Shown piece by piece: positions 6,201 through 41,518 of a DNA stretch of 57,946 nt. The stretch's first letter is position 1. Every line of letters begins with the position of its first letter. The stretch is from Psammoneis japonica (lineage: Eukaryota), in NCBI GenBank assembly GCA_008632985.1, contig QPGO01000318.1, forward strand, positions 1 to 57,946. Reading direction: 5' to 3'. Under the pieces are notes generated by a model, which worked only from the letters and a program-made list of their open reading frames with translations, made no database searches and was not told the origin of the DNA. The position numbers were made by a program, and so were the translations under genes.

Positions 6201-6608
6201 GATGCATTCCAGCTCCAGGTGGGACCTTGCACTGCCGCACTGTGACATGAGAGCTTTTTGGATTGTGCCACATGTTGTGTGCACACATTTCTGCATGCAA
6301 TCTTCTGCAAAATTCCTTCACATGCACCCCTGCTTTGCAAAGCCAAAGGCTTTCTTTTTTTCTCAACAGCAAAAACAAAAACAGGCTGGGTGCATTCTTT
6401 GACATCTGGAGAGCCCACCCAGGCAAACTGGAAATGATGAACTTCAAGTGTGGAGGAGGAGATGACTTTGCTGCCCAATTTTTGCCTCAATATCTGTTGG
6501 CAATTGTTCAGGTGTTTGTTGCTTGCTTGACAATTTTGCTGCAGAGCTCGCACACAGAACTCCATGGACCCATGTCACACAGAGCCTTGCCTGGGTCTGG
6601 AACATGTT
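6201..6608 (+). mobile_element. MITE copy 1 (TpA- and CpG-decayed)
   Basis: Colinear with 38030-38425 and 41132-41518. Ends are GATGCATTCCAG...CTGGAACATGTT, flanked by GTCT/GTCC (4-bp TSD with 1 mismatch). Confidence 0.85.
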
Positions 6609-7087
6609 GTCCTTCACAATGAGTCTCAGATGACTGACTGCCATGACTTCTGCCACATGCTTGCCAACCACCACGGCACAGAAAGCAATGCAACACCCAG
6701 CCAGTGCACATTGTGACAGGCAGAAGTTTCCACCAATGCAAAGGTGGCAACACCTGGGGAGATGTCAAGTGACTCACTTCAGAGCAGAGTGAAATGAAAG
6801 TCAAAGGCTGTGCTGGAACAAGATTTCTTCCCAACCAAGTCAATGGGATTTGCTCTGAGAACTTAGAGGCAAATTGCCAAAGAAAGTGTGACAAGGTTTT
6901 TGAGATTGTGGATCAGCAAGTTTCTCCAACTCTCTGAGGGGTGATGTCTTTGGGTTGCAACATCCAGAATGTGAAACATGCCAAGGAGAAATGTGCTGCA
7001 ACAAAGTCAGAGCTGCAGGGTTGGCACAGGGCACATTTGCCTGCAGCTCCCAAGGCAGCAACAGAAACATTTGAGCACCTTCCTGTG

Positions 7088-7090
<3 letters not shown>

Positions 7091-7137
<47 letters not shown>
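7091..7137 (+). repeat. (TC)n microsatellite
   Basis: Perfect TC run of about 23 units. Confidence 0.95.
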
Positions 7138-7142
<5 letters not shown>

Positions 7143-10100
7143 CTCAAGGCAGCTGAAGGACCAAAGCACATTGGTGCTGTGTGCTGGGGGGGGGNGTGCA
7201 GTGGCTGAAGATGCTCCACAGGGTGGGTCTGCTGCTGCTGGGCATGGCACCAGGCCAACCAAATTTGCAGGCACTCCCATGTCTCACTTGGGTGGAGGGT
7301 GTGACCTTGCTGGTCACACCTCATGAACAAATGACATCATTCTTGGCTGATCAGAAATGCACAGGTGAGCAAGCCAGAGACAAAAATGCGCTGCTGAACA
7401 AGCCAGCAGCAAAAATTCTTGGTTGAGCACAACAAATCTGTTGAGCACAACAAGCATCAGCATGCTCAGCTGAGCACAGCAAAGAACATCACAGGGGGTT
7501 CTTGGAGTCTGCCAACATGCCAGGCGCCACCTGTTGCCACACCCAAGAAAAACAACACAAGAGCAAGAGCAACTCACACAAATGACAACACTGGCATGCC
7601 AAATGGCAGAGACTCTGCAGAGAACAAAAGAAGTGGTTGAGATGCTGTTGTTGTCTTGTTTTGTGTTTTGTGGTGTTGGAAATGGCAAAGCACCGCACAC
7701 AAGTTCTGCCTGCTGTGACAATGACCTCAAGTGGTTGGGCCAGCACACAGAGTTGTTGTTCACTTTGTGCAGGGCTGAAAGGGACAAGCCTGCCAGCTCT
7801 TTTGTGCCATGCAGTGAGAAGCAGCATCATGGCTCCAACTTGCTTGATTGCTCCACAATGTGCAGCTGCTGGTCCTGGCTCATTTCTGTGCTCATTTCAT
7901 GTGAGTTGGAGGACCAGCCACAACTGTGGAAAAACTGGAAGGTGTCTTGACCAAAGTCACCACAGAAAAGAATGAAGTCATTCATCCCAAGCAATGTTTT
8001 CTGTTTGCCTGGAATCTCCTCAATGATCTCCTTCGCAACACCAACATCAAGAAAGAGGCTGCCTGTCTTGATGAGTGCAGAGCACACCTTCTGCAGCATG
8101 AGCACACTGGGGACAAATTCCTCAACAATCAATGAGGTGGATTCTCAACATCAAAGGTCTTTGAAACTTTTTGGCACTCTTTGGTTGGTGCAAAGTGGTG
8201 CCTCTGGCCATGAGAATGGTCTCATGTGAGCTTCAGCAATTTGCACTTTGGTGGGGTCTGTCAGGAAGTGGCTGCCCATGAACTGGAAAGATCCACAACA
8301 AGCCTTGCTCATTGACCCTCATCTTGTTTGAGCCAATGGCGGGACAGAACTTTTCACATCACAAGCAATCCCCCCAAAGTCTCTCCTGCAGTCTGGACTT
8401 CCATTGACACAACACAACAGCTGGGTCACACAGGACAGGTGGCAAACAAATCCACGACAAAATCTCCATCTGGCTTTGCAGCAAAGGGCCCAAAATGAAA
8501 ACAACTGTTCCTTCCTGACAACTTTTTTATCAAATCATGTTGCACTTCATTGTGTTGCTTTTTAGAAAGCTCCACAGAGATTGTTCTGCACCATCCCTTT
8601 AAAGCACTCAACACGCAAAAGTTTTCCCATTTCCTCTTGTGCTGCACATCACCAATGTGCTGTCTGGGAGTCAGCTGTTGCAAATGCCTTTTTAAACCTG
8701 ACTGAGATCTGGCCACTCCACAAATGTGCAGCTGGGTTTGGGATTCTTTTTTGCTGCTTCCACAACAGACTGCAAGCACCACAATGAGCTGCAAGCCACA
8801 ACCTGTGAAAGAAAATGATTGAAACAGCAAATGAAGGAGAACAACACTGAAAACTTTGCTGCTTGACACAAGAAGTGGTGCACTGGTCTGATGCTCAAGA
8901 AAAGATGCTTTGTTCACAAGTTGGTTTTTGACAAGAACACATCAACATCAACATGTCTGTGAGCAGAGCTGTCATGGCCATGATGTGTGAGTTTCTTGTG
9001 AGTGTGCAAAATTGTTTTGCAAGGTTGTGGCATGCTGTGTGTGTGTTCATGTTGTGCCAGCCTCTGTTCTTTTCTTCTTTGTCCTGTGCTGCAGCAATCT
9101 GAGAGAAGCTCATTGGCACCAAATGGAGAGTGGATGATGGTGCAACTCTCAAGAAGCCCCAACCCCACTGCACTGGGCTTGTTTTGAAAGAGCAGCTGGT
9201 TGTGATTTTTTTGTCCAACAGCCCCCACCCATGCTTCTTGCTTTTCTAACTTTCATTTCTCTAAGAACCTGATGGTCTTCTCTTTTTTGGTGAACAACCA
9301 GGTGTCCTCATGTGACGCGGCACACTTGGCTCATTCACAAAGCAGAAGCTTTGAAATTTTGGCAGACTGGCTTGAGGGTGAACTTTGACTCAGATGAAAT
9401 CTGGGTCATTTGTTTGAACTTTGGTGCAGAAAGAAGTGCAACAGTGCTGCTGTGACAAAGGACAAAGATTGCTTCTTTTCACAGCTGACATCCCAGTGTG
9501 CATGCAAGGTGTTGCACTCAGGAAACATGCATTGCAGGAATGAAGTGTGGTGCCAGCACTTGGCTTGTGCTGTTTTTGTGATTTGACAACACGCTGGCAC
9601 TTGGCACAAACAGAAACAGGTGTCAAGGTGGGTTTTTGGCAAACACTCACACCAGCTGCAGCTGCTTGCTTTGCTCTGCCATCTGATTCAAGATCTTCTT
9701 GACCACATGCCACACAGACTCCATCTGGGAGAGAATGGTGCCTGGAAGAAGTTTTTGGCAATGTGCCAAGCATCAAGCAAACCACTGAATTTGTTGGAGA
9801 GCTGAAGAGTGAGCATCAGAGACAACAGCTTGTGAGTCATCAGAGGTGGAGAAACAAGTTGTGCCCCCACAGATGCACCTGCATGCAGGCTTTTTTGTCT
9901 GATGTTTTTGTTGTCATGTGCCACCTTGCCAAATGCACCAACTCTGACACAGAGGCAGAGGAAGTCATCTTCATGAGGACATTTCTGGCAGTGACAACAA
10001 CTTCTTGTCCAGCAGAATTTGCTCATCCCAGAAAGATCTCCAAATTGTCACAGTGGTGCACCCTGCACTTGTGCAGTGCTCAAATGAACATGCAATGCCT

Positions 10101-11464
10101 TCTCCACCTGGGTGAAAAAGATTGTCACTTTCTTTTCCAGAGCAACCTGCTGCCAACACTTTTGCTGATTTCCAAAGCACCTGCCCTCTGACACCTCTGC
10201 TGGATCATGCTGCTTGGGTTGCATGTTGTGTTGCTGGCATTTTCATTTGTAAAAGTCACCAGCAGCTGTCATCACAACATTGTTCATGTGAAACAAATGG
10301 CAAGCATGGCCAATCATTGTGATGTCCATTGCACGCAATTGTTGCACTTGAGAAATTTGAGTGGAAAATGCCCCCAGCACAATGTCCACACTTTCTCCCC
10401 CCTTGCTCTTGCCCCACCCAACATGGGCAAAGCAACACAATTTGTCCTGTTCTTGCTTCTCATCAAGAGGAACTTTGTGAAGGAAAGTCAGTGTGCCGAC
10501 TCTTAGCTGCTCTTTGATCTGGGATTGCACAGGAAAACAATGGCAGCAAAAACATTTGACACTGGTGCAGTGGGCTGGCAGTTGAGCACTTGTGGGGTGA
10601 GCAGCAACGAGCTTTTGTTGCTTGATTTTGATGCTTGTTGGGGGTCGTGCAGGGTGCCCATCCAGGGTCCTTGAGTCAGGGCTGGTTGTTTGAAAAAGAG
10701 ACTTGCTTGCTGAAACTTGCACTTCTGCCAAAAATCAAAACTTTTGTGGGCCCTCAATGTTGGTGCCACATGCCACCAGCAGACCTCATTGGTTTTTGGA
10801 CCATTGCAGATGGGCATCTCAACCCACCCACTCTTTCTGTTTTTCATTTGTTTTGCCTTGTTTTTAAACCCAAAGAAACTCACAAACTTGTTTTCTCCTT
10901 GTCTCACTTGAAAATTTGGGAGAACAACAACTGCTCCAACACTTTAGGGTCAACAACAAGAGCCAATCATGCTTGTCACACAACAAGCCAGCCTTTGTGT
11001 GGGAATTGAAGGATCAGCTGGTGGAACAGGAGACAGCCAAATTGACCCCAAAAGCAGGTGCCATCACTTTTTGTGGCTGCTGTCAAGAAACGGCTGAAAC
11101 CCAGCTGTGCATGGCTGACAGAAAGAGGCCGCACTGGCAATGGCTGCAAGGTGATGAATCCCATGAAAGCCCATGCAGACACCATTGCAAAGGCAATGGG
11201 CAAGTCATCGAATCGTCCAATGTGTCAAGGAGGGGCCCTGCAGTCCACCGGGGTGCTGACATTCTAACACATTGTGCCCAGCCCGGTGCGCTAAAAAAAT
11301 GCACACAATTGATTTGTGCCTCAATTCGTTTTGCAACAGTTTGCTCCTCATCAATTTCTCAAGGTGAAGAGACAAGATCACAACAAATGCCTGCAGTGCC
11401 TTTGCATGCATCTCTGCAGCAATGCAGCCCCAACCTCCACACATCGGGCATCCAACGCAGTCGC

Positions 11465-12868
11465 TCAGGATGGGCTTCCTTCCCAATCCGCCTCACCCAA
11501 ATCATCTTCATCAGCGTCGGCCTGGGCTCTCAGACTCTCATCATCACTTTCAGAGTCTGCGCAGGAGTCTTCATCGCTTCCACCTTCCATGTCACTTCCC
11601 TCATCATCTCCTTCAAAAGCTTCTTGAATGCCGGCAATCTCTTCCTCAAGGGCAGCACGTTGATCCCAAAATGCAGCCACGCGAGTTGTCGCCCACATGG
11701 AGAACACTTCGCAGGTTTTCTCGGGGACCACGCCAGCCCCCGCATCAGATTTTTTTTGTTCATCTGAGAGCCCAACAATTTTCTCAAGGGAATCTTCCTC
11801 TTGTTTCAGCTCAGCCTGCTGTTGCAAAAGTGGCCTGATCGCTTGGACAAAAGGCACAGTCGCCAACTTTGGAAGATCGTTGTTCACCTTGACGTGTGCA
11901 GCTTCGGGACATGCTTTCAACATGTCAATCACGAGCTCTTGGACTGGTCTCCTGTTGCATTGGCGGGCCAGGCAATGAAGTGGCAGTCTGCCCCCTCGTC
12001 GTGCCTTGGCACGGACAGCCTCGGGATTCTCTTGCATGAAAAAGCGGCAAATGCTTGCCCTGTTCTCCGTGCATGTGTCCACACCCATTTCATGGTGAAC
12101 AGGTGAAAGAGACTCACAGGCACAGCACAAAGCAGTCTGTCCCCACATGCCACAATGTTTCAAGCATTCGGGATGCTTCTCAACCATCCATTTCACCAAG
12201 CCTAAGTCACACTCTTCCCATCCCGAAACAACATCTTGCAACATGCCTGGGAAACATTTGTCGAGAGCTGCAGGCAGCAACTCCAAGACTCCACAAACAA
12301 CGGATGCCTCACAATCTCCATTGCCACAGTGTCAAATGAGGCCACATTCAAGTGTTCTGTGGTGGTCTTGAATGATGGTCGGGTGCTCAAAAATCCACAT
12401 GTGGCTCCGAGCAATCCAGGGCATCAAAGCACAATGTCCCGAGGCGATGCATGCCAGAGGGAAGCATTTGGAGCCCCATTTCCACAGCAAGGCATGCGGG
12501 TTGACATGGATCAGAAACTTGATGGCCTCATGAAGAATGGGATTCTGATGAACGCTCTCGCAAACCATGGTCAGCAAAGACCATCCATTTGCATTTTCTT
12601 GAACAGCTCCTCCGAAAATCAATCTGTTTTCTCCATTGCAAACAGCTCTTGCGAGAATCGGTTCATTGGCGACTTCTTGTGCGATGAGATTAAGGATCTG
12701 CTCTCCTGCTCGCTGGATTTCTTCCCGCACGTTGTTGGCTCAGAGCAAGATGAAGATGCGATCAAACAAATGCACGAATTGATTGCGCAGTTCAACTGGC
12801 AAATCTGAGTGACAGACAGGCTCTTGCACGTCTCGCCCTTGCTGTTCTCCGGTGCTTTCATTGGACAC
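11465..12868 (-). pseudogene. Pseudogene of an ankyrin-like (LPLH-repeat) protein with acidic C-terminus
   Basis: Three in-frame ORF pieces are separated by TGA at 12740 and 12332. Motifs GQTALCCAC, RLPLHCLA, EKHPECL and KACPEAA are present. No Tyr occurs in the 273-aa or 132-aa segments. Confidence 0.7.
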
Positions 12869-13765
12869 AGTTGTTTGGTTTGAGGGTGGATCTACGTGCT
12901 GCAGTCTGTTTTTTGGGAGCTCGTAATTTTTATAAAAATGACCCGGATGCATCGTAGCAAATGCGCGCGCTTTCGCAAAAAAGAAATTCAGCGATCGGTC
13001 GAACTTTGTCCGTTCGCCAGACACCCCAGAATGCCCAAACGACAGGTGTGGCCATGCGCAACTTTTACCTCAATGACTGCAGACATGTCTGTAGCCAGTC
13101 AAATGCCACTTGTCGGCATTTCCCAGAAAGTTGCCGCTAATCTCCCACAAGAAGCCCGATTTTAGCGAAAATTGGCAGTTTTTTCGACCTGACAACAGGG
13201 CATGGGTCGACAAGTGGCATTTGAAGCACCAAATGTGCAGCTCTTATAGCTGTCTAACAGCCCCTGTGAGGGTTTGACGAACACATAAGTGTTCGAGGGT
13301 GTTCCGAGGCAGGTCAAAATGACACGGTGAAGTGTGGGAAATGCGAGCCATTTTAAATTAGACCGCAGCACGCAGATCCATCCTCAAAACAGCGCAAAGG
13401 CCACTTGGACTCGTTGATTCTGTTTGTTCGTTTGTGTTAGGAGAGGACGGGGGTGATTCGATCGCAACAACAACAACAACAACAATGATGATGGTGGCAA
13501 CGGCCAAAGTTTTGAGTTTTGGGGTTTTTTCTGCGGGAGAAAAGCAGCCGCGCGCCACGCGCGCAGCGCCGCGCCCGAGCGCTCCTGTCCGTCACACGCG
13601 ATGAAGCAAAATAACCTTTTTAAATAGGTACGTAGATATGAATGAACACAAGTATCATTTAAAATACTTCGTGAATGATGAATGGCATTGATTTCTGCCG
13701 ACCTGTTGAACCGCAACCGCCCACCGCGAACAGAACAAAACACTGACACTCGATACACTCGCGAT

Positions 13766-13838
13766 GACACCCGAGAAAGCGACAGCCGTCTTTGCTTGTA
13801 CTCTAACCTGCCTTTCAGTTTTCCTTACACCACTACAG
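13766..13838 (+). repeat. 73-bp dispersed repeat, copy 2
   Basis: Matches 1529-1601. Confidence 0.9.
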
Positions 13839-13921
13839 CACGATTAGCCCGTTTGAGGAAGCTGCTTCATGTCATAAACTGAGTGGAGACTTTCGTTCTC
13901 CTTATTTTATTTTCTGAAAAA

Positions 13922-16880
13922 ATGAGGCCAACGTCGTTGAGAGGCACCGGCATGTTTGTTCTCCTGGCCTCCATAATATTGCTCCTAGAATGCTCAGTTG
14001 CAGAGGACCACGACAACAAGCAGCTTCGTGATGAGCGTGATAAGCGTTTATCCGTTCTTACAGAATCTCTCGTCAAGTCGCGAGAGAAATTCAAACGCCG
14101 TGAATCTGCCCGGACGTATTGGAAGCGGGCGCTGGAGGAGATTCGAAATTCAACTTCTCGGTATAACGAGACACACTTTACGACGAGATGGAGAAAATCT
14201 TTTATGGAAACAAAGAGATTTGAAGGGTTTCCCTCTTGGGAAGGAATTTTACAGCAGTGGTCAGAGGATATTGCAGACTATTTGGAGAGAACTGGTGAAG
14301 GTGGTGAATACCCAATGTCGACTTATGGAAGACAGTCAACACAAAAAAAGGAAGAGTCTACCATGGTGATTGAAGACTTCCAAGATGCCATGGTGGAAGA
14401 TCAAGTTGCTGATCTCCGTCATCGCGAGAGAGCAGCGGTTCTAAGAAACTTTACAGCTCCGGTTCCAGCGACTGCGGATCAAGAAGTACTGCCTTATACA
14501 GACATATCGGACAAGTCCAAGAAGATATGGATCGTAACTACCGCCGCCTTGCCGTGGATGACGGGCACTGCTGTTAATCCGTTACTTCGTGCTGCCTATC
14601 TGACTAAAGGGCGGGCTCCCCAGGCGGTCACACTTATGCTACCTTGGTTGGAACGTAAGTCAGACCAAGAGCGAGTGTACGGGAAAAACAAGTTGTTTAC
14701 CACCCCTGAGGAACAAGAAGAGTATATTCGAACGTGGCTTGCCGACACTGCAAATTTGCCCCAGCCTAGTCGTGATCTGAAAATTGCATGGTACACAGCT
14801 TGGCAGCAGCGTGCAGAAAATTCTCTGTACAGCATGGGGGATATCACTGCTTTGATTCCGGTGAGTCAGTCGCTGTTGCGGTCGCAGCGACCCCTTTGTT
14901 TTGGCCAAGGTCTCACTATCGCTAACGATCGATTACTTTTGTTAACCACACGAACAGGAAGAGGAAGTGGATATCTGTATTCTAGAAGAGCCTGAGCATC
15001 TCAACTGGTACCGCGCCCCGGGTGAATCATGGACGGCAAAGTTTCCGCATGTTGTTGGAATTATACATACCAATTATTTCTTTTACGCGCAAGAGCAACC
15101 AGCCGCATTAATAAGAGCACCAGCTATGAAACTTCTTTGTAGCTGGATGTGTCGGGCACATTGCCACCGTGTCATTAAATTGAGCGGGACTCTGGGCAAG
15201 TTTTGTCCAGAGAAGGAGTTGGTTGAAAATGTTCATGGAGTACGACAAACATTTCTGACAACAGGACAGCAAGTTGCGAATTCATTGGCGAAGAAAAGTG
15301 ACGACGATATCTTTGGTCCGAATGCAACGCCTACAATATACTTTATTGGAAAGATGCTATGGTCAAAGGGTTTGGGATCGCTCATGGAATTGCTCAAGTA
15401 CGCTGAAAACAGTGCCGGTTTGAAGATCAAGGTTGATATGTACGGAGGCGGTCCTGATTTGGAGGCAGCTAAAACTCGAGCTGAGAAGTTGCGACTAGAC
15501 ATGCCATTCTATGGGCCAATCGACCATTCGGAGTTGGCTTGGACGCACAAGGTGTTTGTTAATCCATCAACGTCGGAGGTGCTGTGCACGACGGTCGCAG
15601 AAGCTTTGGCCATGGGCAAGTTTGTGGTCTTACCTTCCCATCCGTCAAATGACTTCTTTGCTCAGTTTCCGAATTGTCTTCCGTACACTACAAAGGAAGA
15701 GTTTGTCGGTGAGTATGAGCGCAAAGTCTTCCGCATACGGATCTTATATACATCATGTCTCACCACTCTTTTTGTGTTGCTCATTCAGGCAATCTCTATT
15801 ATGCTCTGACACACTCTCCTGAACCGCTCACCGAGGAATACGCCCACGCATTGTCTTGGGATGCCGCTACGGAACGTCTAGAGGCTGCTGGGTGCATTAC
15901 GTTGGAAGAAGCAGAAGCAAAAGACTCGCTCTCCGCGGAAACTGGTGTGGAGGTAATCTTTTGCTCTCACCTTCTGTCATGATTGTTTCTCTATCGTTGG
16001 TCTATGCTCACCGACATTATTTGTTGCGTTCGCGTGCAATGCAGATTACGTTGCCACCATTGATTGAAGACCAAGATGCCCGAAATGCAGTGAAGAAAAC
16101 TCTTCTCCGGTCAAGAGACCGGTACCGTCAATTTCGATCCAGATTGTCACAGGAAATTCAACAGAGTAATGGTGAGTATGTTTGAGGGGTGTCCACATTG
16201 CGCATGAGCTTGTGTTGTATAGGATGCCAGTGGGCGTCTCCTTCTGTTTGCTCACCTTTTTCATATTGCCTGTGGGTTTAGTGCTGCCGAAAGATCTGCA
16301 GATACGACTTGTGGCAGAACTTGACAAACGTCTCGACGTTGACATTGAAACAGTTTTGGAATCGCCCACACTTCGTCTCCAACTATCACCAGGAGAGCTG
16401 GATAAGGTTCTTTTAGAGTTTTATAACCAAGTCACGGTTGGACCAAGTGGTGATTTGCTGCGAGTGATTGGAGGCGGCACTGATGTTGGGCGACAGCACC
16501 TGTACCTGAAACAGCAAGCGGCACGCGAAAGACGACGACGGCTAAAAGTTAATGGAGAAGACGAGCCATCCGAATCAGAAGACTATTTTCCATCGCCTTT
16601 TGAGGCAGACGATTTGCCGTTTGCGACACAGCTAGTTAAGCGAGCATTACAGCGCAACCTACCTCGAAGGCCCGGAGGATTTGCGTTTGCCCCTTCCAAG
16701 GAAAGAGAAACAAGTCTCCGCTCCACGAAGAAGAATCGAGATAAGAATACACCAAAGATGTCTTTGCAACAACGATGCAGGAGCGACGAATGGACATTTG
16801 GGGTAAGAATGCCAGTAACAACGAAAACGCACCCCCTGGCTAGATCATCGTGGACTCCTCCGTTGGTTCCACTCATATAG
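13922..16880 (+). CDS. DGD1: Digalactosyldiacylglycerol synthase (GT4), multi-exon
   Basis: Motifs WIVTTAALPWMTGTAVNPLLRAAYL, ILEEPEHLNWY, IGKMLWSKG and SEVLCTTVAEALAMGK. N-terminal signal peptide. GT-AG introns such as 14861-14957. Confidence 0.92.
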
Positions 16881-16954
16881 ATAGATCTCTTTTCTACAAT
16901 GCCCAATCCTTCCTGTCAATATCGATATGTATTAGTAGCTTTTATTATCTAGTG

Positions 16955-30010: not shown

Positions 30011-30289
30011 GGTTCACACGAATGTTGCACTTTGCAAAGAAAAATGAAAAACAAAAGCACGTGGTTGGTCGTTGCGAAAAATGATGACCAACGGGGTGAA
30101 CTCGGTCATCGTCATTTTGCCTACAGTCATTTGATTAAGCCACGAGGTCATCGTCTTTTTTGTGCATTCGCAGATTCTTCAGATTTGCGAAATGTAAAAA
30201 GTCATAAGGTGACGTGCGCGGCCGGCTTGAAGTCATTGTTCAACTGTGAGTCGTTCCTCAAAAAGTTGCTCACATCAAGAACCACTAAA

Positions 30290-31580
30290 TTCTAAATTGA
30301 AATCATTGGTGTGGGCTCTGCAGGATTTTTGTGCACTTTTGCACCACCAGAGAACAAAACTTGATAAATTTTGACTTTGGGTTGGAGATTGGGCAATTGC
30401 TCAAAGTTTTGCAGCATTGTGTTTGAGCATGTCTGCTCCAACTTGCCATTTTTGAGCAGCGCACATTGTTTTTGAACAATTGCCTTGCACAATTTTGAGC
30501 AATGGGCGAGCACTTTCCCAAAACACCACTGAAAAGCCATCAAAAGCAATCTCAGTGCTGCAAAATTTCCAACTTTCTTGTGCACGGCCAGCCACCAAGC
30601 AGAGAGCACCAAAAAGCAACTTTTTTTGCATTTTTGCATTGCAGCCACTTGCTCCATGTTCACAAATGCACAAGTTGCTGGCTGGCACCCCAGAAATGAT
30701 CATTGAATGCCTGCCAAACAATCGTGCCTCACGTGCCAAGCAAAAAGTCCAAGGAGTGGGTGCTCGTCAGTGCAGCATGCTTCCCTGGTTTGGCGGCATG
30801 TTCCACGCGGCATGTCCAGCACCAAGGAAGAAAAAAAGGGAGCAAGTGGGTGCAAGAACTGTTTGACTGCATTCTTGGCCATGCTCAGTGGAGACAACAT
30901 GAGGTCTCACCTTGATGCAAAGGCAGACACAGTGAAATCTCTCAAACTTGAAGCTGTTGAGTTTGTGCAAAAACAAAAATCACGTGGAGACTGTGTGAAA
31001 AGACTCAACCTTGGCTTCTTGCTTCTTTTCAGGACAAAATCACTTGGCAGCAAACAACATTGTGAAAAAGGAAGCCAGAAACAGCACCAAAAATGTGAAT
31101 CACCTTGACAGAGACAACGGCAAAAGACAGCTCACTCTTGCAATCATCCTCTGCAGCTTGAGTTGGCAAATTTAAGAAATTTTTTCACATGTGGTGCCAC
31201 CCCATTTGCTCCAGCCAAAATGCAAGCAACAACAAACTTGATGAATCTGATGAAAGCGTGCAGAGCTGTTTAATCATTGCCTTGTTGAGCAGAGATGACA
31301 ATGTGGGGTCTGAACTGCTGCATGAAAAGTTGAGTGTCTCTCTCACTCTGAAGTTTTTCTTTTTGTGAAAGGAAATGTTTGCACAGGCAGTTGGAGAAGC
31401 TCCACCTGTGTGTCTCTTTGAGGCAACCTTGTTCACATGAGGAGGAAAGAATGAGGCAGCTCAAGGCCTGCAGGACTCTGTGAGACACGTGCCACCTAAA
31501 TGGCAAACATGACTGGGGGTCTCACCTGGATGGGAAGACGGATGACAATGGCTCTGTCAAAGAAGCTGCTTGGTTTTTTG
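30290..31580. other. TpA/CpG-depleted block B (unidentified degenerate repeat)
   Basis: Abrupt loss of TA between two normal genes; the survivors are mostly TTA/TAA. Confidence 0.8.
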
Positions 31581-31802
31581 AAGAGAATTACATGCAGCAG
31601 TTACAGAATGCGACTTGATCAGGCTGGAAAATGATGCATTTATGAACTTCCGTACACGCAAGAGACAAAGCTAGCGCAAAAGCAGCATGGTAACTCATGA
31701 CCAAGATGCTATTTAATTTCGTCTACACTCTGACAAGCATGAGTCATCTTTTTTACGCACAGCTGCAGCATTCGTCATTCCCAGGCGGTCAGCCAACAAT
31801 TT

Positions 31803-32695
31803 TCAGTTACTCTTTGAAACCGCAAAACACGTTTGGGAAAAGAACATAGCCAACCTTTCAACGGCCCTCGGCTGCCGCTCTCTCCATGCGCTCTTGCAAA
31901 GTCCCACCCCGTCTCGTAAACTCCATTGAAATCCCAAATTTTCCAATGCCACGATTCGTTCTTGTGCCAATTTTCCCTGTCGATAATGCCGACGCATGGA
32001 CAGAACGAATTCTCCCAATCCCGCTGGATGGCTCTTGTCGTCGTTCTTTTGCGGGACATTGCAATTCCCATGGACTTGTTGGTACTCCGACAATTGCGCC
32101 AAGCGATCTTGGAAACACAACATTTTCGGACCGACATGCCATTCGAAACCCAGTCCGTTCAACAATTGAATACGATCCGGAGTCATGGTGTTTGGTTTGC
32201 CCTCGCGGAGTTTGCGGTGTTGGGTCCGTTGCGTACAGACCCACGTGCACAATTTCTGCAAGGTTGGATCGTTGCTTTTGGAGGGTAAATTGCAATGTCC
32301 GTGTGCGGCATGGAACAATTGCAATTCTTCAAACATTTCTTTCCACTTGATATGAGACTTATTCTTTAAACCCAGTGTAGTCACCTCAACCCGAGGAACC
32401 TTGGCTACTGGTTCGGAGGATGATGAGTCGTCTTGTTGTTGCATAGCAGTAGTTGTTGCTTTCTCTTTTTCAAAGCATTGAACTTTTCTTTGGTTTTTTC
32501 ATGCTTGGCTTGTTCCTTGGCGAGTGCCTTTTTTAATTTCTTGGTTTCCTTTTCGAGTGTCTTTTCGTGTCGCGTTTGTTCTTGTTCCAGCAAAAGTTTC
32601 ATGCGCTGCACTTCTGCCGTGAGGCGAGCACACCGTTCGTCATTCTGCTCTTGCTGAGCACGCAGAAGTTTCTCGTGGTCTTCTCTTGAAATCAT
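31803..32695 (-). CDS. Helicase-associated (HA) domain protein with N-terminal coiled coil, frameshift at ~32445
   Basis: Two HA repeats: WKEMFEELQLFHAAHGHCNLP...WVCTQR...RIQLLNGLGFEW and YQQVHGNCNVP...RIVALENLGFQW. Confidence 0.85.
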
Positions 32696-33111
32696 AATAT
32701 GACGAAACTAATGTGTATGGATGGTATAGAGGGGAGGCTTTACTTGTTGGAGATGGGAGAGATGCAAATACAAACTGCACTGTACCGGTACTTATTAGAG
32801 CTGATGTTGTTTGTTGTTGCACGAGAATAGCAGTGATGGTGTGCGACATTCATTAGTCCCCCCATCGCCCCCCCTTCAGAATGCCTGGTAAATTTTCACG
32901 TGTACGTATGGTATGATTGAATATGAACATCTTAGAGGGGGGAATTAAAAACGCAAGCCGGAGCGTGCGTTACGCACTCATTCACCGCAGCGGATCAAAA
33001 TCAAGAAACGATCGCCGAAGCAGAATGGATTGCACTGTATTGTATGGTGTCAATCAAGAAGAAGTCCCGTAATTCCTCCAACATGATGCCTTTGACAAAA
33101 GTAGTGTTTTC

Positions 33112-34249
33112 ATGCCGCTCGTATTGGGTGGCTTGCTATTGGTGGTGAACGTAGGCCACACGGTCTTTGCTCAAATGGCAGCCAACGACGACGGCAGTTT
33201 TCCGTTTCACGAGTCGTCGGCCGTGTTGGTGTCGGAGTTTGGTAAAATGATTCTCGCCATGGTATTGTTGGGGAGAGCGTACAGAACTACATCTTCAAAT
33301 TCTACTACTGCAATGACCGGGAAATCTCAAATTCACTCTGACCCGACAAATCATTGCGGAGATGGCTGTTCCCGGCATGCTGTACACCATGAGCAACATT
33401 TTGAGTTACACAACGGTGGGCTTGTTGGGATCTACCAATTATCAATTATTCAGCAATATCAAAATTGTCATTACAGCCGTCACCTTTCGATTGATTCTCC
33501 AGAAGCGACTCAAAGTCATTCAGTGGGTCTGTCTTTTGTTCTTGACCACGGGGTTGTTGGTTGCCACGACGGGAAACAACAACACGAGTGCATCATCCAG
33601 TAACAGCAACAACGATATCAGTTACTACGACAAGTCGCGACTGGTGTCAGGCTTTGTTCTCATGGTATTGCTCAGTTTAGCCAGTTCGTTTGCCGGTGTC
33701 TTTTCAGAACTCAAACTCAAGCAAGCGCCACAACACCCCATGCTTCAGAACGCCCTCATGTACGCCTGGTCGTGTGTTTTCTGTTTGGTGAAGTACAACT
33801 ACAATGCCAGCAAGTTGGATGGAGGATTCTTTCAAGGATTTTCATGGCCGCTCTGGGGAGCCATTTTGACGACTGCGATCTACGGACAAGTCGTGGCGTT
33901 GATCTTTTACTATTGTGACAATATCGTCAAGGTCTTTGCCAACAGCGCCACCGTCATTGCATCCGCCTTGGTGGATCAAGTACTCTGGAAAAAGCCGCTC
34001 ACGATTCAAATTGGTATTGCCGGTAGCATCATTTTTTGTTCCACCGTCATTTATTATGGCAATCATTCGCTCTTGCTGAGTGATGATGTACAGTTTTTGG
34101 AGAATCACGTGCGGCGATGGACCTCGCCCTTGCCGTTGCACAGTACTGCCGGCAAGCGACCATGGTATTCGCGGGCCCGCACGCTTTGTCTGGCGGGTAT
34201 CATTTGTTTGTTTCCTTGTCATTTTCTCTCTTTTCAAGCACCGAGGTGA
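33112..34249 (+). CDS. Nucleotide-sugar transporter (SLC35A-like), frameshift at ~33330
   Basis: SAVLVSEFGKMILA, MAVPGMLYTMSN, YQLFSNIKIVITA, SSFAGVFSE and YCDNIVKVFA. Confidence 0.88.
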
Positions 34250-35172
34250 TTGCTCCGCCCGTCGCAAGCAATTCATTAACGGAAATGCCGCTCCCCAAGG
34301 ACAACATGACGCACAATTCGCCCTGTGACTGGCCGCCTCCGCTTTATCATCCCTACAAAAACAACAAGCCCGATGACGGTCTTATCCAAGCCATGCAAAC
34401 GGCCAAACGCTTCTTTGATGAGCATCCCGACACGACCTTTTCCTACATTGATAGTGGAGGCGCCCTCGGTGCCTACCGCGATGGCAGTCTCATTCCGGGA
34501 GACTCGGATTTGGATGTTCGTTTTGGCATTTGCAGAAGTTGTGGTGGCAGCGACATTTCCCTGCCAAAACTCAATTCGTCCTTTATATCCGCCAATGATT
34601 ATGCCGTGTGGGGAGACGTTTGGACACGACGCCAAATTGTGATTGAAACTGACGCGCTTCACGTGCAACAGGTAAAGCGCGACTTGTGTTTGCACGAGTA
34701 CGCTCCCGGACAATCGTATTGGTTTCATCGTTCTGCCATGCAACGACGAGCCTTTCAATACACCTATGGCGACTTTTGGTTTGTGAGAATGCCTTGGAAA
34801 GGAATGCACAATGTGGAAATGTGGAACAATTACGCGAAGACCAACAAGAATCATGCCATTCCACCACCCGACGGCTTTCAGGCCAATTGGGACAAGAGTA
34901 TTGAACAAATTACAAAAATGGATACCAACAGAAATGGGGAAATATCGGAAGCAGAATTGAAAGCCCGTGTCTTGGCGGATGGAATTATTCCGCAACGTTT
35001 TCAGACTCAAATTTCATCACGAGAGCGCTGTAGGGCGGCAAAGATGATGAGCTTCTTGTTGAAGTTTAACGCTGAGCCCTTTGTTATTTCCAAACCGGCT
35101 AATTGTTTTCTCGGGTGCTTGAGTAATGCCGATCACCCCTTGTTTCGATTTCCCGAATGTAATGGAAAATGA
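34117..35172 (+). CDS. LicD/fukutin-family nucleotidyltransferase domain plus EF-hand; probably the C-terminal part of the transporter gene
   Basis: IDSGGALGAYRDGSLIPGDSDLDV fits the LicD consensus G.LLGA.R....IP.D.D.D. FQYTYGDFW and EF-hand DTNRNGEISEAE are also present. Confidence 0.75.
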   Translation: MDLALAVAQYCRQATMVFAGPHALSGGYHLFVSLSFSLFSSTEVIAPPVASNSLTEMPLPKDNMTHNSPCDWPPPLYHPYKNNKPDDGLIQAMQTAKRFFDEHPDTTFSYIDSGGALGAYRDGSLIPGDSDLDVRFGICRSCGGSDISLPKLNSSFISANDYAVWGDVWTRRQIVIETDALHVQQVKRDLCLHEYAPGQSYWFHRSAMQRRAFQYTYGDFWFVRMPWKGMHNVEMWNNYAKTNKNHAIPPPDGFQANWDKSIEQITKMDTNRNGEISEAELKARVLADGIIPQRFQTQISSRERCRAAKMMSFLLKFNAEPFVISKPANCFLGCLSNADHPLFRFPECNGK

Positions 35173-35560
35173 AAAAGTGGGTCTCTGCTCTTCAGAGCTG
35201 GCTGCAGACAGTTTTCGTCATTAGGCGACTTCTAAGGAGACATTTCTCGAGACTAGTCCTGGAAAGAACAATGTAGTACTACTATAGATTGGATTCGTAA
35301 GATACTACCTAATTCATCACCTTAGCTTTGCAAATCGCCACCTGTTCATTTGCATACAAGGCAAAAGTCTTACAAGAAAAGCATTAGTTTCCCGCAGTCA
35401 TAGTTCTAACTCAACAGTAGTGTACGGCTGCTTCCAAAGGGTTCCTACTAGAGGCTAGCTAGAGCTAATGCCACTTGGATCAGGACGAGTGCGTGCCAGC
35501 GAGGACGCTACCTAGCGAAGTGCGTACCGTACGACAGACGTGTGACGTCAGACCGTGGTT

Positions 35561-37750
35561 CACGCCCATCTCATTCTGGGCAACCCAACTGCGGCACTGT
35601 TGACAATGTCTTGCACATTTGCAATGCAAGCAGACCCGTCTGCTCCCCCTTTTGTGAATCCATGTCCTGCTTTAAGGACAGTCAAGAATGGACATGCTTT
35701 GGGGCTTGCACATGTTTGGTCATGATGCTGCGCTGGGCACAGCAGGCTGGGATTTCCGCCGCCAATTGAACTTGCACATTCTGCAATGCACCAAGTGGCT
35801 TGTCAGTTGGGTTGCTCTGGTCAAGCCAAGAAAATGGGACAATTTCAAGGAGAACACCAACCCAGCTGTGCAACACAACTGGGTGCAGACAAGAGAACAA
35901 TGAGTGTGAGCATGGGCACTTTGTGCCTGCCAAATCAATGCTGCTGGTGGTCACATCTGAGAATGACAACTGTCCAGGTCCGATGCCCATCTGTCTGGCA
36001 CACCTTGGGCGCAAATTTCCAAACTTCAACAAGTCTGAAGCACATTGGGAAGCTCATCTCTCCTGGTTGCAGGCAAGAACAGGTCAGCATGCCGCTGACA
36101 GCATCGCCCACAACAGCAACAGTGCCAGTGGACGGCATGGTGTCACTTGCCAGCCCACAGCTGACCAAACTGCCAATGATTCCTGATGCAAGATCTAGAG
36201 CCAACTGTGGCATGACAGCTCCACTTTTGACAATTCTGCAATTTGTGCAGTGACATGGCATGTCTTGAAGGCTGGAGCTCTGCTTGGAACTTTGTTTTGC
36301 AGATGGTTGACCTGCATCAAATTTCACTCATGATGGCAAGCCATTTAATTTGGAAGTGGCATGCACAACTGCTCTTTCTCCATGGTGATGTCTTCCTTGG
36401 CTGTGTCAATGTCAGGGCATCTGTCTCTTCATTGCAGTGCCTGGCATGCCTTTCCAAGGCAGATGCTTCTGGAGCACATTGCACAGAGCTGTTAGGTGTG
36501 TTGCCCGATGTTGCGGGCCACCTGCTGTGCTTTTCTGGCAGCTCCCTTCTCAATTGAGCAAGCTGTTTGCTCTTGCTGATGAACTCCAAGAATGAAGCTG
36601 GCTCCACTCAATTGTCTGTTTGTTCAAAAAATGCAATGAGATCTTTTTGATGATGCCAAGAACATCTCTTGTGGCTGCCATGTCTTCACAACATTGCACT
36701 GCACTTTGAGCAGCCTTGCAGCACTTGCACCAGCCAGCTGAACAAGGAAAAATGATGCGACACTTCTTCTTAAAGGGGCAGAAGAAGTGGGGCCTTCTTG
36801 AGCTGGCCAAAGCTCTGAAAATGAAACCCTTTGGCTTTTGCACTTGCACTGTCAATGCTCACAACAAGTGAATGATCACGCAAGGCAGGAGAAAAAAAGC
36901 AGGCCAAAAGGGGGTGGAGATTTAACCAAGACAACTTTGCTCTGTTGGCTGTTTGCTTGTGAGCTGCCACCAGCATCCTGCAACAACAGCACTTTGTCAA
37001 TGGCAGTGTTGTTGCTCTTGCATTTCCAGATGGACAGCAACATTTTGCTTGCATCACACTGGGTGGCACAACTCCATCATCAACAACAAGATTGTGGTGC
37101 TTCATTGTCATTTCTGACAACTCAAAATCTCCAGCCAGCTCTCCTGCAAAGTGAGTCATTCTCACCATTGTTTGCATGAGGCTCAAATTGCAGCAAAAAT
37201 AGAAAAGATTGTTGCCACCACAACCCACAACAAAACAGACTGCAAGTTTGTGTGCTGAGGTCCACCACAAGGAATTGTCTTTGCCAACAGAGTTGTTGTG
37301 ACTTGACATGAGTGGAGTGTGCAGGTGTGAAGTGCTCTCCTTCTCTTCTTGCTCTGTGACAGCACTGAGAGATTTTGCTGCTGTTTTGTTGCTGCAACAA
37401 TGGCAATGTTTGCCAGTTTGTGTTTCCGACACTGCCCAAGTTAAAACCACATTGACGCAAATCATCAGAACATTCGGTTGAGAGAGGCGCACACGAAAAT
37501 CCCGCATTTTTGCCTCTGAGGCACAGTGCAGCACAGCACTCAATCAGGAAGGGGTTGTCCAGTGCCCATGCACTGCCAAGGCACAAACAACAAATTGTGA
37601 AGGAGGAGACTGCCATGCTGAGCAAGGGCAATCATCTTGCTAGAACCCCACCACCCATTTGAACACACCACCACCACGACAAACAAACTTGTCCCCCTCC
37701 TGCTTGACTCCAACTCGCACAATTAAGTGCTGAGATCCATCCACAATGAA
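35561..37750. pseudogene. Hypermutated inverted duplicate of 48390-50553 (3' parts of the aspartic protease and phosphatase/LRR genes)
   Basis: Colinear reverse-complement match. Donor gtatatttacaatgcgag becomes gcacatttgcaatgcaag, and donor ELAGDVELSE becomes ELAGDFELSE. The donor intron is retained. Confidence 0.93.
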
Positions 37751-37759
37751 CCCCAACAC

Positions 37760-37990
37760 ACAAGGTTGACAATGCTGTGTGGGTTCTACTTGGCAGCCAC
37801 GAACACCTTTCTTTTCTTTTTTCAGTGGTGGATTTTGCACCAAATCTTGCTCCACACAAAGAAATCGCCCTCGCTCCAAATTTTTTGACATTTTTGCCAT
37901 GCACACAAGGTTGACACTGCTGCGCAGATTCTTTTTGATGGCCGCGAACACCTTTCCTCCGTTGCACCGTGGTGGATTTTGCACCAACTT
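37760..37990 (+). repeat. Degenerate tandem pair with a ~144-bp period
   Basis: CACAAGGTTGACA...GAACACCTTTC...GTGGTGGATTTTGCACCAA occurs at ~37760 and ~37904. Confidence 0.75.
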
Positions 37991-38029
37991 TCTGTGCACA
38001 TCATCCCAGTGGCTGCGCATCATTCCCAC

Positions 38030-38425
38030 GACGCGTTCCAGCCCTAGGTGGGAGCTCGTAGTACTGACGTGTGACAACAACAATTTTTATCATCCGTCGT
38101 ATGTTTCGTACGTAGATTTCTACGTGTGATATTAAAAAAAAATTGTCCAGACTCGCTGTTTTGCGAAGCCCCAGAAGTTTTATATAACAAATTTATAGAA
38201 ACAATAATGCGCCAGTTACATTCTTCAATGTCTGAAGAATGTAACTGGCTAAGTAAAAAATGATGTACTTCAATCATGTGCGAGTTTGTGCGTTCGCAAA
38301 ATTGCCTCATTTTCTGTTGGCGATCATTGACATTTTAATTACCGTATAATTTTACTACGGAGCTCGCACGTAGAAGTCTACGGGCCCAATGTCACACGGA
38401 TTCCCACCTACGTCTGGAACGCGTC
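38030..38425 (+). mobile_element. MITE copy 2 (not TpA-depleted), inserted in the 5' LTR
   Basis: 24-bp imperfect TIRs GACGCGTTCCAGCCCTAGGTGGGA and TCCCACCTACGTCTGGAACGCGTC; TSD CCAC on both sides. Confidence 0.92.
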
Positions 38426-38512
38426 CCACTTAGACTGGGATCTCTGTCAGGTTGTGAGCAGCGTTTGCGCTTTGCGCAAATGAGGCCCCTCCACCGACCA
38501 ACGACTTGACAC

Positions 38513-40979
38513 ATGCACTCCTCTCTCTTGTCATCAATGCCACCAAAGACCGCTTTGCAAGCAATTTTTGCCGCCATTGTGACAGCAACGTCTCTGCCGC
38601 AAGCGCTCCTCATTCTTGCGCCATTGTCATTTGCATCTGCTGCTGCCACTGCAGCTTTCGGCATCGGCTCTGCGCACGCATTTTGTCCAGTGCGCCTCCT
38701 GACACCTGTTGCCCTCCATGCTGCACAGCCCCAACTCCGCATCTCCAACACTGTGGCGCCTGCGGAAAGCACCCGTTCTAAGACGGCCTCGTCTTGGTGG
38801 GAACGGATGTCCAACCTCCAAGCGGCTGTCTCTCCCAATGCAGCATCTCCTGAAGCTTCGTCCACTCCTGCGGGCACCCCATCCATGAGAGCATCTGTTG
38901 TGGCAGCTGTTCGGGATGCTCTGCAACCTCATGCATCAACTGCTGCTCCAGTTGATGCGATGGCAGCAACTTCCCCACCTGCACCTGTGCAACAATCGGC
39001 TCCTCCTGCAATCTGTGCCCCGCCACATGACACACCGGCACCATCGCCTCCACCTTGTTTGCCTCCTCCTTCAGCTCCGAATTGGCCTCACTCTCCTCCG
39101 GTCCCCAATGAGGAACTTTTGTGGGGCTGTCGGGTTCAACTGGAAAATGATGCAGTGCAACTGCATGACACCCAAACTGCACACACCAATGCTGCCACCA
39201 AAATCTGCTCTCTTCACAGCAAGGTGCAGTCCCACCGTGCCCTGACTGAACAGACCCGAATGGATGTGACAAATGTTGCGACCACCAGTGCCATTGATGC
39301 GCCAAGCCAATCTCTGGAGAAACAGATGCAAGCCACCAAAGAGGAGGCTTTGGCAATGGCTGGTGACATCACTGACTCCACCATTGCCTCCCGAGACAAT
39401 CAATTTGTTCAACTCTTGGATGAAAATCTTGCACCTTGCATTGCCGAAATCAAAAACGAGATTGATGCTTCTGAGGCCACCGTGCTGCAGCACCTGAAAC
39501 GGACCTCCCAAGATGAAGAACAATGCATCACCGCAGTCACTGCTTCCCAGATTGAGGCATTGGAAACGGCTGTCTCCAATGCAACACACACCCTGGGAGA
39601 ACTCGCTGGCTCTGCTCACACCAATTTTCAAAACCAGATGCAAGGTGATGTCACCAAACATGCAGAAGAGTTTGACATTGATCCTTGCTTGATTGGATGC
39701 CACTAAAGCTGCAGCCAAAACCGTCATTAAAAACAGCCTTGAAGTGGCGGCGACCATGACGGGTTCACTTGAGGACTGTGAGAAACTGCTCCCTTCCCCC
39801 TCCTCTGACACTGCTGCTGCGACTCAACTCCTGGCGGCTAAATGTGTCATGCAGGATGACCTTGCAGACACCCTTCGAACAGAATTCGATGGCGTTAATG
39901 CCCAGCTGCTCGCCCAAAACAACTCCATCCGATCACAGGAGGAACGTGTTCAGACTGCTGCCAAAGTCTCTGAGGCTGCTCGTTGTGAAGTCTCGGGCAT
40001 TCGGAAGGATCTCCAGGCTTTTAAAGCATCTGCCCCACCACCCACCACCCCATCCTTCCCTGCGGGCCATGCAATGTCGTCTCCGGACCCGTCCGATGGG
40101 GCCAGTGCTCCAGATCCTGACAGCATTCCTCCCACCCTTGCAGTGAAACTCACCACGGTTTTGGACAACATCATCAACCGTCTCCCTGGTGCCAATCCCA
40201 CCTCATCCTCTTCTGGTTCACCGTTGGCCTCACTTCTCTCGTCAGGTAAATCCTCTGGCTCCTCCAGCTCTGAACGGTGCCACAGCAGTGAAACGTTTCG
40301 CGAGACCCCGGGCCCCTGTCTCTGAACTGTGGAACCATCCGATGTCGTCACGTTCCTGAAGGCCTTCCACACTTGGTGCACCCAGACGGGTGTCCCCATG
40401 CATGACCCTGACACCCTTGCAAGGGATCAATCAGATTTCTGCAACCCCATGCTCGTCAGCACCATCCAACGCCAGAAGTGCACCATTGACATTCATGCCA
40501 AGCTGATCCAAGATGATGTCCTTCTGGATCATTGCCTGTGTGATGGCTGGAAGAAGATCTGCACAGCTTCTGTGGATGGCCATGCCATTCTGTCTCATCT
40601 GGCCGCCATTGGTCTTCCAGCACTCACCGGCAAAGTCGCTGAACCTCCTGCATGGAAAGGTGGCCTGTGCGAACTTGTTGCAGATTTTACCACCTTCTTT
40701 GCAGTGGCCGATGTGGCGGCTGCCACAGTGGATCCGGCTGCACCTCCGGCGCACTCGGACAGGAACAAATCTGTCAAGTTGCTGGACTCGATTCCGGACG
40801 GCCTCTGTGAATTGGTCCCCCTCCTCAAACACTGCCTCCGTGAACTTGGAGAATCCTCCCCACCACCACATGACCTGCATCTTGTCTCCTTGATCACTCA
40901 GATTGATCCAAAACTTGCCTCCTCCTCGGATCCAGCCGGGTCTCTTCACGCATTCCGAGGCCGCTTGCAACGCCCATGA
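38513..40979 (+). pseudogene. Disrupted gag-like region of the Copia element
   Basis: Long Pro/Ala-rich and coiled-coil ORF pieces directly after the PBS. All pieces are Tyr-free. The assignment is positional. Confidence 0.55.
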
Positions 40980-41131
40980 CCCTCGTCTTCTACGGACAGA
41001 CAGACACACGCATTTCAACATCGCAAGGACCTTGTCTGGGATGCTTGTGGTGCATTCGGACGTGGCCACTGTGATTGCTCTCAGCTTGCTTGTCATGCTC
41101 TGCCAATGGATTTTGTCAAGAACCACACGGA

Positions 41132-41518
41132 GACGCATTCCAGCTCTGGGTGGGACCTTGCACTGTTGAACTGTGACACAATCATTTTTTGTCATCCGTC
41201 GCATGTTTTGCACACACTTGTTCTGTTGTGAAAAATTGTTCCACACTGCCTGTTTTGCGAAGCCAAAGGCTTTCTGCCATCTGTGTTTGTGACAATAAAA
41301 ATGCACTGGGTGTGTTCTTTAACATCTGAAGAACACACCCGGACATGCTGCAAAGAATGTGCTTCAAGTGTGGAGGAGGAGACACATTCGCAAAATTGCC
41401 TCTTTTTCTTTTGCAATCATTGATGTGTCCATTGCTTCACAATTTTACTGCGGAGCTCGCACGCAGAATTCTGCGGGCCCAATGTCACAAAAAGTCCCAC
41501 CTGGGACTGGAACCCATC
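41132..41518 (+). mobile_element. MITE copy 3 (TpA-decayed, CpG partly kept), nested in the Copia element
   Basis: TIRs GACGCATTCCAGCTCTGGGTGGGA and TCCCACCTGGGACTGGAACCCATC; TSD CGGA at 41128-41131 and 41519-41522. Confidence 0.9.

Follow-up and report, generated by a model that had tools for sequence, protein, structure and literature searches.

Depleted blocks and MITE copies at the locus

We analyzed a 57,946-nucleotide stretch of the Psammoneis japonica genome (assembly GCA_008632985.1, contig QPGO01000318.1, positions 1 to 57,946), called the window below, in which the dinucleotides TpA (TA) and CpG (CG) have been lost from discrete regions, including those around two of three copies of a miniature inverted-repeat transposable element (MITE). 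A 250-bp composition scan of the window delimited five sharply bounded blocks, amounting to ~18 kb or 31% of its length, in which TA was almost absent and CA plus TG nearly doubled. Expressed as observed/expected ratios (o/e), TA in the blocks was 0-0.11 compared with 0.56 in the background, and CG was 0.09-0.72. This pattern probably reflects two separable mutational processes, to which only certain inserted or silenced parts of this genome are subject. The features are listed below, with the MITE copies named after their start positions and target-site duplications abbreviated to TSD and terminal inverted repeats to TIR.

Background, 39.5 kb: TA o/e 0.56, CG o/e 0.98
4610..11000, block A1: TA o/e 0.034, CG o/e 0.095, CA/TG o/e 1.89; no Pfam match; houses MITE copy 6201
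6201..6608 (+), MITE copy 6201: 1 TA, 2 CG, 94 CA+TG; TSD GTCT (6197-6200) / GTCC (6609-6612); TIR not detectable
11001..12890 (-), block A2: TA o/e 0.035, CG o/e 0.52; decayed ankyrin-like family member
30370..31495, block B: TA o/e 0.024, CG o/e 0.22; intergenic insert
35562..38029 (+), block C: TA o/e 0.068, CG o/e 0.22; 35562-37758 is an inverted, decayed duplicate of 48380-50553
38030..38425 (+), MITE copy 38030: normal composition, 30 TA, 25 CG, 50 CA+TG; TSD CCAC (38026-38029 / 38426-38429)
38430..42608 (+), block D: GC 0.55-0.56; TA o/e 0-0.07, CG o/e 0.56-0.72; Copia pol C-terminus at its end
38432-41131, block D1: TA o/e 0.065, CG o/e 0.56
41132..41518 (+), MITE copy 41132: 3 TA, 10 CG, 83 CA+TG; TSD CGGA (41128-41131 / 41519-41522)
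41520-42608, block D2: TA o/e 0.0, CG o/e 0.72
44960..46950, block E: TA o/e 0.03, CG o/e 0.19; intergenic insert
48380..50553 (-), source region of the duplicate in block C: normal composition; 3' part of a purple-acid-phosphatase-like gene plus its downstream flank

All eight block parts were at the TA floor. In the 6391 bp of block A1, for example, there were 15 TA, compared with ~250 expected from the background rate (1549 TA in 39,501 bp), a depletion far beyond chance. The claim that 11001-12890 keeps many CpG and almost no TA was borne out by 63 CG and 4 TA. The targets that we could identify were the MITE, a Copia tail, a host-gene duplicate, and an ankyrin-like pseudogene; three blocks had no assigned identity. 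Pfam returned no credible family, and no viral domain, among the 109 open reading frames (ORFs) of at least 80 aa in the blocks, and tRNA and Rfam scans of the window gave 0 hits.

Blocks A2, C, and D hold many long ORFs on both strands without a family match (e.g., 10868-11767, 36770-37543, and 38510-39706), and several ORFs in the blocks reach 200-400 aa. DNA without TA has no TAA or TAG stops, only TGA, and no Tyr codons, so long false ORFs arise in it. Gene predictors are likely to call them as false genes.

The small element was originally labeled a MITE, and we found every feature of a genuine small TIR transposon of that kind: a TIR, TSDs, a size of 387-408 bp, no ORF, and many copies. 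The TSDs of all three copies are 4 bp. The TIR of copy 38030 is 24 nt long and 92% complementary, that of copy 41132 is 77% complementary over 22 nt, and that of copy 6201 is undetectable; the terminal repeats have thus been eroded. Contig depth in X1, the one public sequencing run that contains this DNA (no RNA run is listed for it), was 38,000-146,000 when summed over the MITE bins, compared with ~35-50 for unique DNA; a depth ~1000 times that of unique DNA indicates a very abundant family of roughly a thousand copies. We scanned a metagenome for a degenerate 21-nt motif of the terminal repeat and found 14 loci but no further MITE copy; the match extended past the motif in only one contig (L001), by 47 nt. 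At 568-624, L001 matched the end of copy 38030 with 91% identity over 47 nt, indicating that a related element exists in another organism. The terminal repeat of L001 retains three TA of copy 38030 that copies 41132 and 6201 lack. A scan of viral contigs for the MITE terminal repeat found 0 copies.

The three copies align over ~400 bp with ~70% identity, or 82-85% if only purine versus pyrimidine is scored, so that about half of the inter-copy differences are transitions. The strings quoted from them in the original prediction were all present, at ~38353-38388 in copy 38030, 41445-41480 in copy 41132, and 6535-6570 in copy 6201. Copy 6201 had been described as largely without either dinucleotide, which its single TA and two CG confirm. 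Copy 41132 had been described as "TA lost, CG kept": the loss of TA stood (3 vs 30 in copy 38030), but the retention of CG was overstated, because 9 of the 25 aligned CG were kept and 16 lost. CG gives the cleaner comparison between the two mutated copies: nine of the 10 CG of copy 41132 are CA or TG (5 and 4) in copy 6201.

The copies therefore differ as had been claimed, but reading them as three stages of one MITE needs correction: each carries the state of its block. Copy 6201 had a CG o/e of 0.088 in a block (A1) with 0.095, and copy 41132 had 0.49 between D1 and D2 with 0.56 and 0.72. Likewise, the "intact" copy 38030 is indeed rich in TA and CG (o/e 0.88 and 1.48), but it is an insertion of normal composition, an island between the depleted blocks C and D. 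The signal is thus regional and not a property of the MITE, and the MITE copies, as bystanders, mirror their blocks instead of forming a clean time series.

We also noted an internal MITE hairpin (38211-38249), 17 nt long and 100% complementary in copy 38030. In copy 41132 (41308-41340), it is still perfect over 12 nt, with arms that changed in a matching manner (TA>TG / TA>CA); with so few sites, this could be chance.

Direction, context, and order of the dinucleotide changes

We compared block C with its source region at 48380-50553, ~11 kb away, which has not been mutated. Over the initial 1.27 kb of the pair, 51 TA in the source had given rise to 21 TG and 20 CA, with 0 TA kept in block C, and 68 CG in the source to 28 CA and 24 TG, with 3 CG kept. 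Over the same interval, CA was kept at 59 of 87 sites and TG at 62 of 89. When only sites with clean neighbors were counted over the whole 2.1 kb, transitions were found at 48/57 TAN and 52/72 NCG, and at 15/194 NCY. R-A-R changed at 12/162 sites, against the 48/57 at TAN, and NCA had become NTA at 4/158. The source region itself retains normal TA and CG; hence, only one member of the pair was mutated.

Protein comparisons pointed in the same direction. The original prediction spoke of a Copia body that keeps many CG but almost no TA. Its composition was as described, although the "body" proved to be the pol C-terminal tail only (~42054-42713, ~0.6 kb, ~190 aa): 45/45 matches to this Ty1/copia pol C-terminus carry RVT_2 (best E 4e-49), neither reverse transcriptase nor integrase was found upstream of it, and the remainder of block D gave no Pfam match. 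In the depleted homologous part of the tail, 3/3 conserved Tyr columns read TGC, TGG, and TGC; the earliest retained Tyr corresponds to the first TA outside the block, whose edge is at 42609. The ORF at 11468-12331 (-) in block A2 belongs to an ankyrin-like protein family (210 matches at E<=0.001, best 5.8e-49). It has 0% Tyr compared with 2.9% in its homologs, and kept 0/5 conserved Tyr, the columns reading C, C, H, L, and L. Together, the source/duplicate pair, the lost Tyr columns of Copia and A2, and the TA kept in L001 fix the polarity as TA>TG/CA and CG>TG/CA and exclude the reverse, as in fungal repeat-induced point mutation (RIP).

Next to this direction stands a clear strand symmetry. 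TA in the pair ended as 36 TG and 40 CA, and a runs test found no strand-coordinated runs of outcomes (z 0.95). Equal strands without runs point to many independent hits on duplex DNA and argue against both the editing of an RNA or cDNA intermediate and a single processive event. CG outcomes were 31 TG and 47 CA, i.e., C>T at CpG on both strands.

The sequence context of the TA change was also specific. TTAA or TTAG/CTAA made up 34 of the 48 residual TA in the blocks, compared with 171 of 1546 in the background. From the choice of outcome in the pair, we estimated relative rates by 3' neighbor of 1 for A, 4.7 for C, 1.8 for G, and 2.7 for T (likelihood-ratio test, chi2 10.67, 3 df). Survivors and outcome rates together indicate a T-A-pyrimidine motif (TAC>TAT>TAG>TAA), with T-A-A the most resistant. 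Outside TpA, A>G was at most slightly in excess at R-A-Y (24/127 vs 7/85, p=0.046, uncorrected) and not at all at R-A-R.

Two further candidates were dropped. An apparent excess of off-motif editing at V-A-Y vanished after we controlled for the direction of change and for CpG. Double changes between CA and TG (13/87 and 6/89) had been considered as a sign of continuing activity; other double transitions occur at ~5-9%.

We then counted nestedness in 230 overlapping 500-bp scan windows:

TA-low scan windows (70): CG low 42, CG mid 26, CG normal 2
TA-normal scan windows (150): CG low 0, CG mid 14, CG normal 136

Strong loss of CG without loss of TA was thus seen in 0/150, whereas TA was lost with mid or normal CG in 28/70; the single TA-mid/CG-low scan window straddles a block edge. 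Similarly, A2, D1, and D2 were at the TA floor yet had CG o/e of 0.52-0.72. The losses are nested, with TA lost first.

Log survivals calculated from the o/e values, on the assumption that both processes began together from background composition, gave a ratio of TA to CG loss rates of at least 3.8 for D1, at least 4.4 for A2, and ~8 for D2, the last from an upper bound on 0 observed TA. With TA already at the floor, these ratios can serve only as lower bounds. The suggestion that TA loss is the faster is therefore supported at ~4-8 fold, though only as a lower bound and only if both losses started simultaneously. CpG decay still differs between related contigs: among the 40 listed differences (of 118) between block D in the window and other run X1 contigs, 10 were TG/CA in the window against CG elsewhere, 3 were the reverse, and only ~five involved TA.

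Block edges were sharp, within tens of bp. On the left side of block C, depletion starts within ~10-30 bp of the start of homology at 35562, and the flank outside is rich in TA and CG. The normal-composition island of copy 38030 is bounded exactly by the MITE ends. By contrast, the right edge of block D at 42609 lies ~100 bp before the end of the Copia ORF and ~145 bp before a 40-nt direct repeat (42714-42753). The unit that was mutated is roughly, not always exactly, the inserted DNA.

The 40-nt direct repeat, with TG...CA ends, brackets block D (38010-38029 plus 38430-38449, and 42714-42753), and its 3' copy follows a G-run. Copy 38030 lies inside this short direct repeat; since the MITE splits the 5' copy, the uninterrupted paralog at 42714-42753 serves as the "empty site." The repeats may be very short long terminal repeats of a deleted Copia derivative. 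Just to the left of MITE copy 38030, in depleted DNA, is an 87-bp tandem-like duplication (37757-37843 and 37902-37987, 78% identity). Adjoining the right edge of block A is a ~510-bp unit of normal composition (12879-13388) between ~56-nt inverted repeats (91% in purine/pyrimidine coding), whose arms differ at TA/TG and CA/CG steps; it may be another young TIR element.

Two probable mutational processes and their alternatives

We favor two separable processes as the likely explanation. The first would be a region-targeted hypermutation in which A:T>G:C transitions on either strand turn TpA into TpG or CpA; it would prefer a pyrimidine 3' of the changed A and would have run near completion, leaving mostly TTAA and TTAG. 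The second would be a slower decay of CpG to TpG/CpA in the same blocks, most likely by 5-methylcytosine deamination, given that CpG methylation of repeats is known in diatoms. The MITE copies would then differ by where and when they were located in mutated blocks. Copy 6201 would sit in an old block from which both dinucleotides have gone, copy 41132 in a block that has lost its TA and roughly half of its CG, and copy 38030 would have arrived after the surrounding DNA was mutated. We suggest, by analogy with the proposal made for the alga Bigelowiella natans, that the enzyme is an ADAT2/TadA-like adenine deaminase acting on DNA; methylation would account for the CpG loss, and the process may serve as a defense.

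B. natans offers a measured parallel. According to the preprint, its mutation-accumulation lines mutated at a rate of ~6e-7 per site per generation in two regions of integrated viral DNA, where 230/231 mutations were A>G or T>C, all 230 on TpA; the genome holds 124 further clusters that are depleted of TpA and enriched in CpA+TpG, some with transposon domains, and an ADAT2-like deaminase is the authors' candidate (Mettrop et al., bioRxiv 10.64898/2026.01.13.699255). The main text of that preprint gives neither CpG nor trinucleotide context (bioRxiv 10.64898/2026.01.13.699255). Methylation in diatoms is described as mainly CpG and in repeats, with gene-rich DNA unmethylated (PMC5124317), which fits a gene CG o/e near 1 and a CpG decay confined to the blocks.

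A single process, such as a deaminase with dual activity on A and C or a repair bias, could instead drive both TA and CG to CA/TG, with the "stages" reflecting two rate constants. In its favor, the blocks affected by the two losses are identical, CG was never found to be lost where TA was not depleted, and the B. natans preprint cites ADAT2 enzymes reported to act on A and C in DNA. However, A2, D1, and D2 are decoupled, as the CG o/e of 0.52-0.72 at the TA floor demonstrates, the contexts differ (5' T for A, 3' G for C), and 230/231 mutations in the B. natans lines were at A:T with almost no C>T; we consider a single process quite improbable. With the block-to-block spread in o/e and the asymmetry of the scan-window counts, the TpA-only mutation of B. 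natans supports the proposal that the loss of TpA is distinct from that of CpG and is the first to saturate.

The MITE differences might mostly be fixed subfamily variants, copies 41132 and 6201 having descended from a TA-poor master rather than having been mutated in place. These two copies have transversions in common relative to copy 38030, and relative to L001 in the terminal region, and they agree at 13/17 TA-derived and 5/6 CG-derived sites. A model with the 3'-neighbor context alone already gives 10.0/17 TA agreements, so the excess is not significant (P=0.11). Moreover, the non-MITE flanks have the TA/CG state of each copy, the nine CG common to copies 38030 and 41132 read 4 TG, 4 CA, and 1 CG in copy 6201 as expected of independent decay, and at position 41383, 71% of the depth in run X1 reads T, i.e., TA where copy 41132 has CA. 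Subfamily variants as the main cause are accordingly improbable, though the common transversions and the 13/17 identical outcomes mean that some of the 41132/6201 differences possibly stem from a shared sublineage.

As to the base attacked, these data are equally compatible with A and T. Thymine oxidation to 5-hydroxymethyluracil is a possible TpA chemistry, and over-active T:G mismatch repair has been proposed for the loss of CTAG in E. coli. A modified thymine in TpA that mispairs or is repaired to C, or such over-active repair, would leave the same products, since TA is self-reverse-complementary and T>C cannot be distinguished from A>G on the opposite strand; equally, "A then pyrimidine" is "T preceded by purine." TadA edits U-A-C in a tRNA loop, and the TAC preference recalls that site, a weak hint in favor of A. 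We regard chemistry on T as unlikely, but still worth keeping in mind.

A reversed polarity, with CA/TG>TA in the TA-rich copy as in fungal RIP, would fit copies 38030 and 41132 if they were taken by themselves. But block C is paired with a TA-rich copy that is an ordinary coding gene, TA o/e is 0.03 in the blocks compared with 0.56 in the genome, Tyr codons were lost in the blocks, and the outgroup L001 has TA, so that the chance of a reversal is practically nil. An artefact of sequencing or assembly is also conceivable, because base calling can go systematically wrong in blocks of modified DNA, and so is foreign DNA of odd composition. The independent contigs of run X1 (records 1-8, depth 27-37), however, match blocks C and D with 0 differences, which rules out consensus or polishing error; strand-specific miscalls would also have given TA and CG, which are absent; and the blocks hold a local gene copy, a host family member, and a local MITE rather than foreign DNA. 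We give this explanation hardly any credence.

Several points weigh against the two-process explanation. Because the right edge of block D falls inside the Copia ORF and not at the end of an element, the insert fails as the unit of targeting at some edges, and the functional source of block C has escaped mutation, so the trigger is not simple homology to a second copy. The relative rates are only bounds, as every block present is beyond intermediate TA loss. Copies 41132 and 6201 may owe part of their TA loss to a shared ancestor that had itself been mutated. The assembly and run X1 may derive from one sample, the evidence comes from one window, three MITE copies, and one gene/duplicate pair, and methylation and the deaminase are components that we infer.

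More tentatively, and with a little less than even confidence, we propose a TpA-directed, T-A-pyrimidine DNA-editing defense in diatoms and Rhizaria, maybe widespread in algae of the stramenopile-alveolate-Rhizaria group. It would mark new or ectopic DNA (transposons and stray host-gene copies) with insertion-precise edges, would be active long after saturation, and would be independent of, and at least several-fold faster than, methyl-CpG decay, making it an A-to-G counterpart of fungal RIP. If so, a defense known from one 2026 preprint on a chlorarachniophyte would also work in a diatom-like alga, on ordinary transposons and gene duplicates, and a one-alga curiosity would become the question of a general eukaryotic system. 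The motif (TAC/TAT changed, TTAA spared) and the internal clock (TA, then CG) would be testable handles, and MITE copy 38030, with 30 intact TA and mutated DNA on both sides, would be a live target. TpA erasure would also hide transposons from domain searches.

Elsewhere in the window, the genes are intron-poor. A 73-bp stretch occurs at 1529-1601 and 13766-13838 with 97% identity, both times in DNA of normal composition; ARAGORN found no tRNA and Rfam no match in it, and it may be a shared promoter or leader element. An uninterrupted 900-aa ORF at 53943-56645 (+) encodes a LonB/LonC-like protease whose relatives reach at most 64% identity and, where named, have bacterial names (e.g., Planctomycetes), which made them uninformative about the taxonomy of the host; it may be organellar or horizontally acquired.

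Comparison with known systems

A literature search on TpA-specific hypermutation, which did not cover subscription journals, returned only the B. natans preprint and none for diatoms. As in that alga, the transitions here are restricted to TpA, give TpG or CpA according to strand, and are confined to particular, discrete regions. B. natans is a chlorarachniophyte, whereas the present host is a diatom-like stramenopile; CCT-theta from the window has its best named relatives in diatoms, at 52-60% identity. The targets differ as well: instead of giant-virus and virophage inserts, we identified a MITE, a Copia fragment, a partial host-gene duplicate, and a dead gene-family member, and none of the identified targets is viral. 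Depletion is near saturation here (TA o/e 0.03), compared with 0.45 in the B. natans region derived from a nucleocytoplasmic large DNA virus, and it is accompanied by CpG loss in the same blocks, on which the main text of the B. natans preprint is silent. The B. natans mutations were measured as they arose, whereas ours are read from standing sequence.

Like fungal RIP, the changes in the window are a transition hypermutation of inserted or duplicated DNA that inactivates transposons, and one block edge coincides with a duplication edge. Unlike RIP, which converts CpA to TpA, enriches TpA, and mutates both duplicates, TpA is destroyed here, only one member of the pair is mutated, and the changes are scattered on both strands without strand runs.

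The CG component resembles methyl-CpG deamination in diatoms, plants, and vertebrates: C>T is specific to CpG, affects both strands, and is limited to repeat or silent DNA, while genes have a CG o/e near 1. It departs from plain methyl-CpG deamination in that CG loss is always preceded by complete loss of TpA; methylation here would be presumed from the methylomes of diatoms.

ADAR and APOBEC are examples of deaminase-driven editing of retroelements and viruses, and ADAR favors a 5' U. Similar to such editing, we observed clusters of transitions on parasitic sequences. In contrast to it, a DNA transposon and a DNA-level gene duplicate were affected, both strands changed equally, the preferred 3' neighbor of the changed A is a pyrimidine and not G, and C>T occurs at CpG rather than at TC/CC. 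Overall, the closest match is the TpA-only hypermutation of B. natans, to which the window adds a new lineage, new classes of target, an extended motif, and an ordering relative to CpG decay.

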